Shown: positions 40,259-45,441 of the stretch, in pieces
How the letters are laid out: each line of letters starts with the position of its first letter
Numbering within the stretch: position 1 is the first letter of the stretch
Assembly (NCBI GenBank): GCA_963769935.1
Contig: CAVYNY010000016.1
Coordinates: forward strand, 288,001-352,000
DNA: 64,000 nt
Direction of reading: 5' to 3'
DNA from: an uncultured delta proteobacterium
Lineage (GTDB): Bacteria; Desulfobacterota; Desulfobacteria; Desulfobacterales; JAFDCJ01
Translations under genes and position numbers: made by a program
Notes under the pieces: generated by a model
Database searches by the model: none
Seen by the model: the letters and a program-made list of their open reading frames with translations, nothing else
Told to the model about the DNA's origin: nothing

Positions 40259-42634
40259 ATGGATTTGACGCGAATACCTACCTATGAAGAATTAGAGGAA
40301 CGGGTTCGGGAGCTTGAAAACGCGGAACGCGAACGCAAGGAGGTCGAAGAGGCTCTCCGTCAGGACGTGGACAAATTCCGGCGGTTGTTCGAACTGGAGT
40401 CGGACGCGCTGGTCCTTATCGACAACGCGAACGGCCGCATCCTGGAAGCCAATCGATCGGCGACCGAGATCTATGGCTACAGCCGGAAACAACTGTTAAA
40501 ACTGCGCAATGTCGATCTTTCAGCCGAACCGCAGCGCACCAGTCAGGCCACCCGGGACGAACTGCCGATAGTACCGGTGCGCTACCACCGAAAAAAAGAC
40601 GGGACCGTCTTTCCGGTGGAGATCACGGGGAGCCACTTCGAATGGCGGGGCCGCAAAGTGCACATCGCCGCCATCCGGGAAATCGGCTGGCGCCTGCATA
40701 TTGAGGAGGAGCTTCGGGCAAGCGAACAAAGATACCGGACCCTGTTCGAACGGAATCTAAACCCCATCGCCATCATCGATAGGACCGGCCGGTACATTGA
40801 GGCGAATCCGGCGTTCCTTGAATTTACGGAAAAAACCAAGGAACAACTCCTGCAAATGACCTACTTCGATTTTGCGCCTCCGGGAAAAGAGGATATCCAG
40901 GAAAAGTTAAGTCGCTCGTTTTGGGAAACCGGAGGGACCTTTGAAAAAGAATATTTTATCGACGGAAAGCTGAAAATCCAGGAACTCACCGTCTCGCCCA
41001 TTTCCTACCGGGGGACCGATGCGGTGGTCGGTGTGGGAAAAGATATTACCGAACGCAAGCGGTCCGATGCCAACCGGAAAAAAATGGAAGAAGAACTGAT
41101 AAAACGCAATCAATTCATTGAAACCATTTTGGATAATCTACCCATCGGATTGGCTGTCAACTATATCGATGAAGGAAAAGCAACCTACAGCAATAAAAAG
41201 TTCGAGGAAATATACGGGTGGTCGAAGGAGGAGCTTGATGATGTCGAAAATTTCTTTCAAAAAGTTTATCCGGATCCCGTGTATCGAGAGAAAATAAAAA
41301 GGCAGGTTTTCCAAGATATTCAATCCGGGGATCCGACAAGAATGATTTGGGAGGGCTTGGAGGCAACGGGAAAAGATGGACGCAAAAGGATTATTTTCGC
41401 CAAGAATATTCCTCTCTTAGAACAGAACTTGATGATCTCTACGGTTCAGGACATTACTGAAAGGCAATACTTGCAGAACCGGCTCCAGCAGGCGCAAAAA
41501 CTGGAGGCCCTCGGCACACTGGCCGGCGGTATTGCCCACGATTTCAATAATATTCTGTCGGCGATCATCGGATACACAGAACTTGCGCTGGATTCCCCTG
41601 AAAAGAGCACAACTTTCCACGATAACCTGCAGCAGGTTTTCGCCGCCGGGATGCGGGCGAAAGAACTGGTAAAGCAAATATTGGCCTTTGCGAGACAGTC
41701 GGAAGAAGAGCTCAAGCCGATTCGGCTGGATAAAAGCGTACGTGAGGTGCTTAGATTCATTCGCTCATCGGTTCCCACAACGATCAAAATAGAGCGAAGC
41801 CTGGAGACGGATTCCGTTGTCATGGGCAACGCCACTCAAGTCCATCAGATATTGATGAACCTATGCACCAATGCCGCGCAGGCCATGGAGGCAGAGGGCG
41901 GGGTACTGGAAGTCAGCTTAAAGAGTGCCAAAATTGACGGCAGCTACCAAACAGGAAAAACGATATTGAAGCCGGGAGAATATGTCGAAATCAAGGTGTC
42001 GGACACGGGCGTCGGTATTTCACCTGATATTATCGAGTCCATTTTTGACCCGTATTTTACCACCAAGGGGCCGGGCGAAGGAACCGGCATGGGCCTGGCG
42101 TTGGTTCATGGAATTGTCGAAAGCTACGGCGGGAAAATTACGGTAGACAGCAAACCGGGAGCGGGAACCGTCTTTACGATCTACCTGCCGAAGGTAAAAA
42201 AGCAAAAGGAAATTATCTCTCACGAAGCGGAAATCCTGCCGGGCGGAACCGAACATATTTTGTATGTTGACGATGAGCTTCCTCTCGCCAGCATGGGCGG
42301 CCGCGCCCTTGAAGGTCTGGGTTATACGGTGACGACAAGAACCAGCAGCGAGGAGGCGCTGGAGCTTTTTCGGGCCAAACCGAACGAATTTGATCTGGTT
42401 ATCACCGACATGACCATGCCCCATATGACGGGCGATCAGCTGGCGGCTGAAATGATGAAAATACGGTTTGATATCCCGATTATTCTTTGTACCGGATACA
42501 GCAAAAAAATATCGGGCAAAACAGTATCCGATATCGGTATCAGGGCTTTTGCATACAAACCCATCGTAAGGGCTGATTTGGCCAAAACGGTCCGCAAAGT
42601 GCTGGATGAGGCCAGTCAGAATTCAAAAGCTTGA
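40259..42634 (+). CDS. Multi-PAS hybrid histidine kinase
   Basis: Three PAS-like blocks, [26 protein letters not shown]. Confidence 0.93.
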
Positions 42635-45441
42635 AAAAGATTAGAATTCTAACAGGCAAATGGGTGCCGGTGATCGGGCTATCCGTAACGATAATCTCGT
42701 ATGGCTTTATCACCTATTTGGCCGTCCTGCTGGGCAGCCTCCAATTCGAGACAACGCCTCTGCCTCACAAGCCCCCGGTTGAAGATGTCTTCTTTCTCGT
42801 CTATGCCAACTATCTGGAATATACGTTGCAGCGAGGCATTCTCTGGTTGGGAATCGCCGCATCATATCTTTTCCTGCCGGGCTTGGTCTCCGCCCTTCTC
42901 TCACTGCCGGTTTCTTTGGCGTGGAGACTCCCACTGAGGGTTCTCGTCCTTCGCCGCTTCGGAGCGCGGAAGAGGAGCAGGAGCCTTCGAAAAGCGCTTC
43001 GACAGCGCGTGGCCCCCATGGGTCACGTGTACACCCTGGCAGACCGGGACTTCAAGACGCCGTGGTACATTCGGTTTCCGCTTATCTTCGCGCAGCTCGT
43101 TTTCCTTCACTTTCGAGAGCGTCGGATCAGGTCGCCGAGAGGCATCCGCCGTGTCTCCTCAAGCCTCGACGTTCTCTGGGCTCGGAATATAAACTGGGTG
43201 GTATCCTTTTCCAAGGCGTTCTCTTTGCGTTCTTCGGACACGGTCTGGAGAGATCTGGTCCAATCTCTCACGGCCAAGGTCGAGGCAGTACTTATCGATG
43301 TGCATGAGGGTTCCCCCAACCTCGAGTGGGAGATTAGAAAGTGTGTAGAGGAAAACTATCTGCACAAGACCATGTTCATGACCCCGGGCGATCGGCGCGA
43401 AGAGGCGGTTTGCCTGCTCGCCAAGCTTGGGCTCGGACACCTAACCGGCGATAAGCTCGTCGTCTACGACACAGTCGGGTTGGAAGAAGACGCGCGACTT
43501 CGCACCTTCCTTGAGTCGCGCCAGGCCTTGGAACCTCGGCCGGGTCGTGCTCGGCTGACGAGCCACTTTAAGGCCGCCTCGGTCATGATCGGACCGATCC
43601 TATGGGTACTGATATTGTTTGTCGCCCTGCACGCTTTCCTGGGGGAAGACAGACACCCAGAAGCGAACCGTTTCGGGCCTCTCGTTGGGCGTCTCCGGCA
43701 AAAGCCGACCCGGGACGCAGCGTTCGGCGATTTGCATCGCGCCGTGTCCATATCAGGGACAACACACAGCGCTCCATGGATTGATGATTTCGATAAGGCC
43801 GTCACACCGGAGCTGAAAGAGCTGTGGGAAGACGAACCGGGCCGCCGGCGGGAAATCTTGGCCGTACTTAAAGATGCCGGCACCCCTGGTGGAGCTGAGA
43901 TCTGGAAGCGGGCTCTCTCGGACGCCGGGCAAGTGGGCGGACTGACCTTCGATGAGGTCATCGGGGGTATCGCCGCTGCGCGTTCGACAAAAAACCTTCC
44001 GGATCTTCTCAAACTATTCAGGCAGGGTGAGCCTGATACGCGGCTCAAGGTCCTCCGGGCGCTGGGTGAGCTTGGGGATAACTCGGTCGTCCCCATCCTC
44101 CTGGCCGATATTATTCTACAGCCCGAGGGAGCGCAACCGCTTAAACTGATGCAAGAGGCGACCTCGGCGCTTCAGAAGATCCTCCGTCCCAAACCACCGT
44201 TACGGGCGATCGGGCCTAACAGCAAACCGGCCGCGCTCATTGCCGTGCTCAGTTGCCCGGGATCCGATCAGGCTTCACTCCTGTACAGACTGATGCCCTT
44301 CATTGCCAATAGCCATTGGAAGCAACACAACACAAATTTTCGCGGCACCGAGCCGAAGATTATACTGTACGGGAAGATTGAGACCCGAGATCTCCTTGTA
44401 TCGTACCCGACGACAGCAGGGTACCGAGTCTTTCAAGAGTTTCCCGATCTGAGATATCGGTGGAGCGGCCTGATGGAGTACGGAGAGCGGCTTGATGCCG
44501 TCTTATTGGAGGTGAGCGCCACTCGCGGTATCGACGCCTTAGTGAAGCAACACGTCGCCGTGGCCCATATGCTGGGCATTCCAAGAGTGGCCGTGCTTAT
44601 CAACACCGGGAATGCCCCGTTAGAAACGGGTCGCCTCGCCTCGTTGGAAAGGGAACTGCACGAACTGCTGGGCGGGACCGGATTCGTTGATTCAAACGTG
44701 GTCATCGTGGCTGGTCCTGTGCCCAATGTGGACGAAATTTTCAACGACAATGCCGCTCGTACCGGTGTCAAAAAGCTCTTTGCGGCCATCGACGCTTGGC
44801 CGACGCGCCCGGCGCTGGCGGAGCGACCGACGCGTTTCCCGATCGGCGGCGTCTTTCAGATTCCTGACAAAGGTACGCTGGTAACCGGATTTCTTGAGCA
44901 GGGTGTCCTATCGCCGGGAGACGTTCTGGAGGTCGCCGGCGACACCGCCGGCGCGCAGGTGGTGGCGGGTGAGCGCCTCGACTTTCCGGGGTCTGATGAT
45001 GTTGTGGGACTCTGGATTCGAGACGGAAGAACCGAGCGGTTGCGGGCAGGTCAGGTCCTGGCGCAGCCCGGCACGCTTACGGCCCACGACAAATTCGCAG
45101 CCTGGGCGTATGTGCTGTCGGAGGAAGAAGGCGGCCCGCGCAACCTTGTTGTCGGCACGATCGGCGGCGTGCAGGAGGAAAAGGCCGCCTTTTCTCCGGG
45201 CGCGGTATTCGCGTTCCAGTTCTGCAATGCGTTTGTCAGCCCCAAGCACCTGCGTTGGGGCTCGCAAGTGGACACACCGCCCGAAGAGTTGCGGCTGGCA
45301 GATTTCAAACCGGCCCGGGGCTGGGTCACTCTTGAGGTAAGTTTGGAATATCCGGTTCCGATTCAACGCGGTCAGCGCTTCCGGCTCTTCTCCGACGGCG
45401 AGCTCGTGGCAGCCGGAGCAGTGACGGAGGTCATAGAGTAA
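42631..45441 (+). CDS. Membrane protein: possible TIR/NDT-like domain, HEAT repeat and GTPase-dead EF-Tu-like C-terminal part (start codon uncertain)
   Basis: 936 aa open frame; residues 531-936 are collinear with EF-Tu domains 1-3; TRLKVLRALGELGDNSVVPILL is HEAT-like; three hydrophobic helices. Confidence 0.85.
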   Translation: MKKIRILTGKWVPVIGLSVTIISYGFITYLAVLLGSLQFETTPLPHKPPVEDVFFLVYANYLEYTLQRGILWLGIAASYLFLPGLVSALLSLPVSLAWRLPLRVLVLRRFGARKRSRSLRKALRQRVAPMGHVYTLADRDFKTPWYIRFPLIFAQLVFLHFRERRIRSPRGIRRVSSSLDVLWARNINWVVSFSKAFSLRSSDTVWRDLVQSLTAKVEAVLIDVHEGSPNLEWEIRKCVEENYLHKTMFMTPGDRREEAVCLLAKLGLGHLTGDKLVVYDTVGLEEDARLRTFLESRQALEPRPGRARLTSHFKAASVMIGPILWVLILFVALHAFLGEDRHPEANRFGPLVGRLRQKPTRDAAFGDLHRAVSISGTTHSAPWIDDFDKAVTPELKELWEDEPGRRREILAVLKDAGTPGGAEIWKRALSDAGQVGGLTFDEVIGGIAAARSTKNLPDLLKLFRQGEPDTRLKVLRALGELGDNSVVPILLADIILQPEGAQPLKLMQEATSALQKILRPKPPLRAIGPNSKPAALIAVLSCPGSDQASLLYRLMPFIANSHWKQHNTNFRGTEPKIILYGKIETRDLLVSYPTTAGYRVFQEFPDLRYRWSGLMEYGERLDAVLLEVSATRGIDALVKQHVAVAHMLGIPRVAVLINTGNAPLETGRLASLERELHELLGGTGFVDSNVVIVAGPVPNVDEIFNDNAARTGVKKLFAAIDAWPTRPALAERPTRFPIGGVFQIPDKGTLVTGFLEQGVLSPGDVLEVAGDTAGAQVVAGERLDFPGSDDVVGLWIRDGRTERLRAGQVLAQPGTLTAHDKFAAWAYVLSEEEGGPRNLVVGTIGGVQEEKAAFSPGAVFAFQFCNAFVSPKHLRWGSQVDTPPEELRLADFKPARGWVTLEVSLEYPVPIQRGQRFRLFSDGELVAAGAVTEVIE

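Follow-up and report, generated by a model that had tools for sequence, protein, structure and literature searches.

Toll/interleukin-1 (IL-1) and IL-17 receptors of animals combine a cytoplasmic TIR or SEFIR domain, a membrane helix, and an extracytoplasmic repeat sensor built of leucine-rich, immunoglobulin, or fibronectin units. In plants, the integrated decoys of the NLR receptors, such as RRS1-WRKY, are drifting copies of an attacked host protein fused to an immune signaling protein. Most of the characterized bacterial TIR systems detect phage within the cell. Here we describe a gene from a 64,000-nucleotide stretch of DNA (hereafter, the window) of an uncultured delta proteobacterium in the order Desulfobacterales (GenBank assembly GCA_963769935.1, contig CAVYNY010000016.1, positions 288,001–352,000). 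Its 936-residue product joins two hydrophobic helices, a TIR-like alpha/beta domain, a third hydrophobic helix, a HEAT-like helical repeat, and a degenerate elongation factor Tu (EF-Tu). With its predicted cytoplasmic TIR/SEFIR-like domain, membrane helix, and extracytoplasmic sensor, the protein resembles the animal receptors by analogy and not by receptor homology; it differs from them in its N-terminal enzyme and C-terminal sensor, its three helices, and the HEAT, WD40, and EF-Tu sensors of its family. Unlike the plant decoys, it is bacterial and transmembrane and has no NB-ARC/STAND domain; no STAND NTPase domain of the Avs kind was found in the Pfam scan or in the structural model of the protein.

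PMC9503650 defines the TIR-DrHyd-SLOG clade through two features, polar residues that follow strand 1 and an active site in the helix that comes after strand 3, and its common chemistry is the cleavage of N-glycosidic bonds. The domain described here shares with chains of this clade (ThsB TIR 6lhy, TIR-STING 7un8, SEFIR 5y8f/3vbc, SpbK 9phb, and nucleoside deoxyribosyltransferase [NDT] 7o62) a predicted flavodoxin-like core, a polar residue after strand 1, and a Glu in the helix after strand 3. In contrast to these chains, with which it has 5–13% identity and no hidden Markov model match, it carries a hydrophobic and basic insertion of about 60 residues after strand 2, and a membrane helix precedes it in all of the relatives with complete N-termini, with another usually after the domain when a tail exists. 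EF-Tu and a helical repeat also occur together in the Avs7-MCP-EF-Tu immune sensor, in which, according to 10.64898/2026.01.04.697583, domains II–III and the open form of EF-Tu matter; however, Avs7 is a soluble STAND nuclease to which host EF-Tu is recruited in trans, whereas the EF-Tu described here is fused, GTPase-dead, and predicted to be periplasmic. The Lit protease and type IV Thoeris likewise connect EF-Tu and TIR domains with bacterial immunity, but in 10.1101/2024.10.24.620036 EF-Tu is the cleaved target and not part of the sensor. Membership of Thoeris is not indicated, since neither a conserved ThsA-type partner nor any conserved neighbor was present across 34 genome loci of the family. 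Neither the family nor a fusion of EF-Tu with immune effectors was described in the papers that our literature search covered, although supplementary domain tables could list them; a term look-up returned no mention of EF-Tu in 10.64898/2025.12.03.692087 and PMC7159879, and the mention in PMC11090510 concerned an unrelated fold match. The family of TIR-like putative receptors, some with a fused EF-Tu, is apparently undescribed.

The TIR-like domain and its family

A preliminary description of this DNA had noted two hydrophobic helices, a very basic segment, and a motif-bearing domain with a tentative TIR- or NDT-like fold, and all of these elements lie in the single frame at 42631–45441 (plus strand), of which that description concerned residues 1–530. 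A six-sequence profile searched among 1.84 billion sequences identified 924 representatives of the domain at E ≤ 0.001, of which 148 passed E ≤ 1e-30, and our analysis covered the best 150 relatives. In an alignment of 157 stretches, R108, W189, and W206 were invariant (100%), F110, G131, L136, D138, and E234 were 99% conserved, and D223 and H132 were conserved at 93% and 92%, respectively; because the motifs are near-invariant over these stretches, they are not chance features.

The AlphaFold2 model of the domain, built with 139 sequences, is a confident alpha/beta fold (pLDDT 89.8), with a three-layer sandwich around a central parallel sheet; E234 lies in the helix that follows core strand 3. 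In a wide structural search of this model against 48,161 chains, the best row was the SEFIR domain of IL-17RB (Z 10.9, rmsd 3.2, 128 residues aligned), followed by the MyD88 TIR (Z 10.7), SfSTING (10.6, rmsd 2.5), a prokaryotic SEFIR (10.6), and the MAL TIR (10.6), with a deoxyribosyltransferase at 10.5 and ThsB at 9.8. The leading TIR/SEFIR/NDT rows spanned Z 10.9–10.2 with 121–148 residues aligned. By title, 13 of the top 20 rows were TIR, SEFIR, STING, ThsB, or NDT, and a further four (MilB, RCL, 4nux, and 3bq9) presumably belong to the same clan. In the alignment and the model, the places that define the clade are filled by R108 after strand 1 and by D223 and E234 in the strand 3/helix region. 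By its predicted fold, the domain very probably belongs to the TIR-DrHyd-SLOG clade, and E234 is probably its catalytic residue.

Several results weigh against this assignment. Unrelated chains appeared in the same search at Z 9.8–9.2, a margin of about 1 Z. No Pfam or PADLOC model matched residues 96–300. Foldseek returned nothing at E ≤ 0.001 for the domain, and its weak rows were WrbA-like flavodoxins and others, with no TIR among them. In hhalign comparisons with seven TIRs from the fetched loci, the probability was 1%, and the sole local match was a helix–strand–helix segment in which E234 was paired with the TIR Glu. Thus, the TIR/NDT-like fold first suggested held up in the wide structural search, where TIR, SEFIR, and NDT chains led the matches to residues ~100–300 by a modest margin, and in the placement of E234, but gained nothing from Foldseek or from the profile–profile comparison. 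Neither Pfam nor PADLOC gave a profile match to the TIR superfamily proper (TIR, TIR_2, ThsB_TIR, and CAP12), and Pfam gave none to the NDT/DrHyd families, the structural Z of which (10.5) equals that of the TIR rows. A sequence search of the PDB with the domain also found no match, and a query of the ESM Atlas retrieved unnamed clusters only (0.85–0.87), which serve as a lead only. We assign the domain to no named TIR or NDT family; its diverged representatives number at least 924 and share a conserved motif that resembles an active site, yet neither Pfam nor PADLOC has a model for them.

The helix at residues 143–161, in the insertion after strand 2, was considered as a further transmembrane segment and rejected, its Kyte–Doolittle (KD) value of 1.07 being too weak. 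The insertion likely faces the membrane, because a distant relative of the domain in a congener (L117:1339-2481, minus strand, genome G408) has two long hydrophobic stretches at this place. The insertion of this relative suggests that the family is part of a larger superfamily in which the loop is anchored in the membrane.

Predicted membrane topology

The topology was derived from hydropathy and charge counts, not from a topology predictor. The KD maxima of 19-residue stretches lie at residues 14–32 (1.92), 80–98 (1.82), and 315–333 (2.51), and the third helix quoted in the preliminary description is located exactly at 43582–43641. The full-length model (pLDDT 80.4, pTM 0.51) contains the first transmembrane helix (TM1), a long TM2, and an unbroken TM3 of 31 residues, and is silent on sidedness. 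Residues 101–150 include 14 Lys/Arg versus two Asp/Glu. At least one hydrophobic helix precedes the domain in all of the 137 relatives with complete N-termini, and the first 30 residues of the domain contain on average 8.2 Lys and Arg (132 sequences), so the domain is predicted to be cytoplasmic. Among the relatives with tails of more than 150 residues, 56 of 60 have a helix with KD ≥ 1.5 directly after the domain. Around this helix, the mean number of Lys and Arg falls from 3.4 before to 1.7 after (45 higher before, 6 tied, and 5 reversed; Wilcoxon p 1e-7, a value inflated by kinship), and 48 of the 56 have no further helix beyond it.

These charge and helix patterns make it likely that the enzyme domain is cytoplasmic and that the HEAT repeat and the pseudo-EF-Tu are periplasmic, as had been proposed earlier from the positive-inside rule; the family-wide charge bias bears out this predicted arrangement statistically. 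The HEAT-like repeat that had been noticed after the third helix was also recovered, as a HEAT_2 match at residues 443–492 (E 1e-4, below the curated cut-off) and as an all-helical region in the model. In 53 long relatives, Pfam assigned the tails to HEAT in 22 cases, to WD40 in 5, and to EF-Tu in 4, with one protein entered under both EF-Tu and HEAT; the tails of the remaining 23 gave no match. The protein ends directly after TM3 in three relatives (P0005, P0026, and the first gene of locus L043), which identifies the three helices and the enzyme as the core module. On this one enzyme core, the relatives exchange the outer sensor (HEAT alone, WD40, or extra helices).

A degenerate EF-Tu fused to the membrane module

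The C-terminal part has three-domain homology to EF-Tu both in sequence (E 2e-29, EF-Tu being the best PDB sequence match) and in structure (Foldseek E 1e-25, TM 0.81), and Pfam recognizes domains II and III. The GTP-binding motifs G1, G3, G4, and G5 are all replaced, and the protein is not a functional EF-Tu. The G domain is 19% identical to the canonical majority line, and domains II–III are 31–34% identical to it. The model resembles the GDP form of EF-Tu (TM 0.75–0.81 versus about 0.5 for the GTP forms).

The fusion of the membrane helices, enzyme, HEAT repeat, and EF-Tu is real and not an assembly artifact. A second full-length copy, 97% identical (P0013), lies on a different contig; the HEAT/EF-Tu junction is spanned by contigs from two studies (X3 and X8), as is the TM3/HEAT junction (X3 and X9), run X1 having been left out of the junction check as a possible source run. 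Such independent bridging mattered because both true tuf genes of the host are frameshifted in this assembly (G000 C22:721,200-722,400 and 736,600-737,800), probably through consensus errors in a repeat. A chimera with host tuf was rejected, given that the fused copy is only about 31–37% identical to host tuf and that the junctions are bridged.

The EF-Tu part is under purifying selection, with 18 synonymous and 13 non-synonymous strain variants listed and pN/pS of 0.25 (p 1e-4; at least 31 strain differences, from low-depth contigs). On one contig of depth 5.2 (X6), however, 515 nt at window positions 44487–45001 are replaced by one base, which shifts the frame, and this counts against the receptor reading given below; a contig of run X3, from the same sample, covers part of the deleted stretch. 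This strain contig, the very long branches, and the frameshifts in both tuf genes would be expected if the EF-Tu part were the decaying passenger of an old accidental fusion or an assembly error. That explanation is largely refuted and very improbable in view of the bridged junctions, the pN/pS value, and the fact that six copies from distant taxa, some decayed and some intact, keep the reading frame through all three EF-Tu domains.

Seven family members carry an attached EF-Tu, which ranges from a nearly intact copy to a strongly decayed one; among the 150 listed representatives, 5 have it as a fusion. The same HEAT–EF-Tu architecture occurs in P0018 (locus L010, Verrucomicrobiae), P0019, P0021, and P0028, and P0003 is cut by the contig end at an intact P-loop. 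In L043 (Planctomycetota), the first gene encodes the core only as far as TM3; the next gene (L043:3659-5920) encodes five hydrophobic helices and, behind them, a HEAT-like stretch and a decayed EF-Tu. One segment of this second gene, which has no Pfam match, resembles ExbB/TolQ and precedes the HEAT-like stretch. G-domain identity to canonical EF-Tu in the series is 53, 48, 31, 23, 19, and 13%. None of the 48 true metagenome loci, many of them on short contigs, contained EF-Tu. A single clade of the fused EF-Tus was not rejected by the tree (p-AU 0.51, with long branches), and the TIR-like domains of the EF-Tu-bearing members formed one weakly supported branch (SH-aLRT 84 in a quick tree); a single capture of EF-Tu is neither shown nor rejected by these trees.

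The EF-Tu could also be a structural or folding module that is held by the HEAT repeat of a receptor and does not act as bait. The order of the fusions, in which EF-Tu comes after the HEAT-like repeat, the joint displacement of both to the second gene in L043, and the residues conserved in the decayed copies, which by eye look largely like fold core, are in keeping with such a role. However, relatives with HEAT only and no EF-Tu exist (P0006, P0007, and P0015), and a sensor slot accounts better for the way in which unrelated immune effectors have captured EF-Tu repeatedly, so we regard this role as quite unlikely.

EF-Tu in other long proteins

A search for long EF-Tu-containing proteins gave 462 matches among 7,991 scored, of which the best 120 were listed. 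In nine of these 120, EF-Tu is joined to an effector domain: TIR (2), caspase (1), CHAT (3), a DUF900 hydrolase (2), or a dynamin-like/double-GTPase protein (1); one membrane pentapeptide protein was also present (together, P0260, P0279, P0189, P0241, P0270, P0273, P0200, P0208, P0229, and P0234). These fused EF-Tus are 57–82% identical to the canonical protein by domain and are dispersed among ordinary EF-Tus in the tree. Most are known from single contigs, and the search also returned many EF-G/EF-Tu read-throughs and eukaryotic gene-model artifacts. The effector fusions suggest that immune effectors repeatedly make use of EF-Tu as a module. IF2 N-terminal domains (PF04760) preceded a full EF-Tu in 10 of the 120 listed proteins (P0197, P0214, P0225, P0231, P0232, P0247, P0249, P0257, P0267, and P0268), as either a recurrent fusion or an assembly chimera. 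Membrane-anchored copies of EF-Tu were also seen (P0162, P0258, and P0261), one of them with three tandem EF-Tu domains; the even number of helices in P0162 and P0261 suggests that their EF-Tu is cytoplasmic.

The soluble TIR-, caspase-, and CHAT–EF-Tu fusions have no hydrophobic helix, and they bear on the main rival to a periplasmic sensor. In that rival, the whole protein is a cytoplasmic immune sensor in which TM3 dips into the membrane but does not cross it and the HEAT–EF-Tu part senses EF-Tu-binding phage proteins (capsid/Gol-like) or serves as a built-in cofactor of the Avs7 type. Avs7 binds the open, GDP-type EF-Tu via domains II–III on a helical-repeat sensor (10.64898/2026.01.04.697583); correspondingly, domains II–III are better kept here than the G domain, and the model is nearer to the GDP form, a weak hint that may be a default of the predictor. 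The near-intact fusions P0021 and P0028 retain all of the GTP motifs, and the periplasm is not known to hold GTP. Nevertheless, TM3 is the most hydrophobic helix of the protein and is unbroken over 31 residues in the model, and the in-to-out charge bias recurs in 45 of the 56 relatives, which leaves an all-cytoplasmic sensor unlikely.

Distribution and genomic context

A motif pattern that recovers 123 of the 156 known family members matched 43 loci in GTDB genomes and 67 in metagenomes. Of these, 34 genome loci (in Bacteroidota, Acidobacteriota, Pseudomonadota, Actinomycetota, Planctomycetota, and Verrucomicrobiota) and 48 metagenome loci were true. A search of 400 other genomes of the host phylum did not find the domain, and the closer relatives yielded one distant match in 60 genomes (1 of 22 in the genus), several of which are incomplete. 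None of four pattern matches on viral contigs was real, phage and plasmid records gave no tblastn match to the domain, and a back-translated pattern search (A2) returned 67 stretches with no relatives. The distribution of the family is patchy across phyla.

No neighboring gene recurs in more than 3 of the 34 genome loci, and the cluster that reaches this number is TPR-S. The genomic context was examined with Pfam (E ≤ 1e-12) in crude open reading frame (ORF) calls within two genes of each locus, for TIR, SLOG, SLATT/DUF4231, and TPR-S. These families were found in 11 of 129 neighboring ORFs versus 0 of 94 control ORFs (p 0.003), in the metagenome repeat in 7 of 121 versus 0 of 97 ORFs (p 0.018; 6 of 105, p 0.03, without five duplicate loci), and, when pooled, at 13 of 74 loci versus 0 of 28 control loci (p 0.017). 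In one locus (L027), a SLOG–SLATT gene is followed by a TIR gene and then the family gene, and in two others (L016 and L067), the order is TPR-S, patatin, and the family gene.

Other aspects of the context speak against a role in conflict. Counted by locus, the first set is not significant (8 of 34 versus 0 of 9 false-hit control loci, p 0.17); the list of neighbor families was fixed after the first set had been inspected; the control loci include near-duplicates; and because related sequences are not independent, the p-values overstate the significance. No conflict genes adjoin the window gene, L010, or L043, the window gene being flanked by a PAS histidine kinase gene upstream and an MFS gene downstream, and because L010 and L043 have no such neighbors, the context evidence belongs to the family and not to the EF-Tu subgroup. 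With PADLOC only, there was no clear separation (three TIRs and one phospholipase in 129 ORFs versus no TIR in 94 control ORFs); one of the control loci proved to be a type III CRISPR cluster, and matches to PDC-S01 occurred in both sets. The proposal that a single gene encodes a conflict receptor therefore keeps the support of the patchy family distribution, the lack of a conserved partner, and the TIR/SLOG/SLATT/TPR-S enrichment, but draws none from the loci of the window gene, L010, and L043.

The immediate neighborhood bears on a non-conflict role, in which the protein would be a membrane nucleotide-signaling or -processing protein, such as an envelope-stress receptor or an NDT-like hydrolase co-transcribed with the upstream two-component cluster. 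The TTG start of the gene overlaps the stop codon of the upstream PAS hybrid histidine kinase, NDT, MilB, and RCL fall within 1.3 Z of the best TIR row, and 61 of the 74 loci lack a TIR/SLOG/SLATT/TPR-S gene at a distance of up to two genes. We consider this role rather unlikely, however: no neighbor is conserved across the 34 genome loci, which also led us to reject an obligatory link to the kinase; the GC content of the gene (58.7%) differs from that of the kinase (50.2%); and the domain was absent from the 400 other genomes searched in the phylum, with a distant match in just 1 of 22 congeners. The relatives share the start position of the 936-residue protein.

Four homologues of the TPR-S-containing neighbor protein are encoded at other sites in the host genome (C7:190929-192266, C7:81549-83003, and C18:30934-36730 of G000), which are possible partners in trans.

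The features of the gene are listed in Table 1. The Pfam scan of the window covered three ORFs besides this gene. Downstream, at 47574–48674 on the minus strand, a 187-residue ORF with a hydrophobic N-terminus ends at an HExxH-like motif and is followed, after an in-frame stop, by a 93-residue continuation and a 74-residue ORF, with no Pfam match in the region; we take this region to resemble a broken bacterial polymorphic-toxin/immunity pair.

Table 1. Position of the fused gene and its parts in the window
Feature	Residues	Position	Strand	Remarks
Whole gene	936 aa	42631..45441	+	TM1-TM2-TIR-like domain-TM3-HEAT-pseudo-EF-Tu; single open frame
TM1	12–37	42664..42741	+	Basic N-terminus; predicted in-to-out; KD 1.92; helix 2–37 in model
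TM2	69–98	42835..42924	+	Predicted out-to-in; KD 1.82; end of one long modeled helix, 50–97
TIR/DrHyd-clade-like alpha/beta domain	96–300	42916..43530	+	Unannotated family; predicted cytoplasmic
R108-x-F110 after strand 1 and very basic segment	108–126	42952..43008	+	Conservation
Hydrophobic insertion after strand 2	143–161	43057..43113	+	KD 1.07
Glu234	234	43330..43332	+	Predicted catalytic residue; 99% conserved; helix after strand 3
TM3	318–337	43582..43641	+	Predicted in-to-out; KD 2.51; family charge bias
HEAT-like helical repeat	349–518	43675..44184	+	PF13646, E 1e-4; all-helical in model; predicted periplasmic
Pseudo-EF-Tu G domain		44230..44805	+	G1, G3, G4, and G5 motifs lost; 19% identity to canonical consensus
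Pseudo-EF-Tu domains II and III		44827..45438	+	31% and 34% identity to canonical consensus

A possible mechanism and its implications

Our best reading, somewhat less likely than not to be right, is that the gene encodes a one-gene transmembrane conflict receptor in which the EF-Tu decoy switches on a nucleotide-cleaving TIR-clade domain; its ligand and its output we infer as follows. A molecule that seeks EF-Tu, for example an interbacterial toxin crossing the periplasm, would bind the fused bait. Engagement of the bait may cluster or twist the three-helix membrane module and activate the enzyme, and the cytoplasmic TIR/DrHyd-clade domain would then cleave an N-glycosidic bond, most likely in NAD+. 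The output may be a drain of NAD+ or an ADP-ribose-type signal that acts on effectors; SLATT, SLOG, and patatin proteins, which adjoin some of the relatives, would be examples. Antibacterial toxins often target EF-Tu or depend on its help. Candidate ligands are provided by 10.1101/2025.10.28.685041, in which Rhs2CT and Tse6 require EF-Tu to cross the target inner membrane, EF-Tu is needed for the activity of two CdiA toxins, and TreTu and Doc modify it; a periplasmic copy of EF-Tu would meet toxins before they cross the inner membrane. In the same source, however, Rhs2CT binds EF-Tu's GDP-binding domain, which weighs against bait because this domain is the most decayed part here. A broader reading, that the family is a widespread Toll-receptor-like class of bacterial proteins with a cytoplasmic TIR-clade enzyme and swappable periplasmic sensors, in one lineage of which the GTPase-dead EF-Tu decoy intercepts EF-Tu-seeking interbacterial toxins, and that EF-Tu has been captured repeatedly as bait by TIR, caspase, CHAT, and hydrolase effectors, is possible but doubtful.

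If the conflict-receptor reading is true, a TIR-clade enzyme under periplasmic control would give bacteria an equivalent of the Toll-receptor layout, and TIR immunity would extend to envelope attack and interbacterial toxins. The fused and decayed EF-Tu would then be a bacterial integrated decoy, and the series from near-intact to dead EF-Tu makes the surface that has been kept, and its binder, directly testable.

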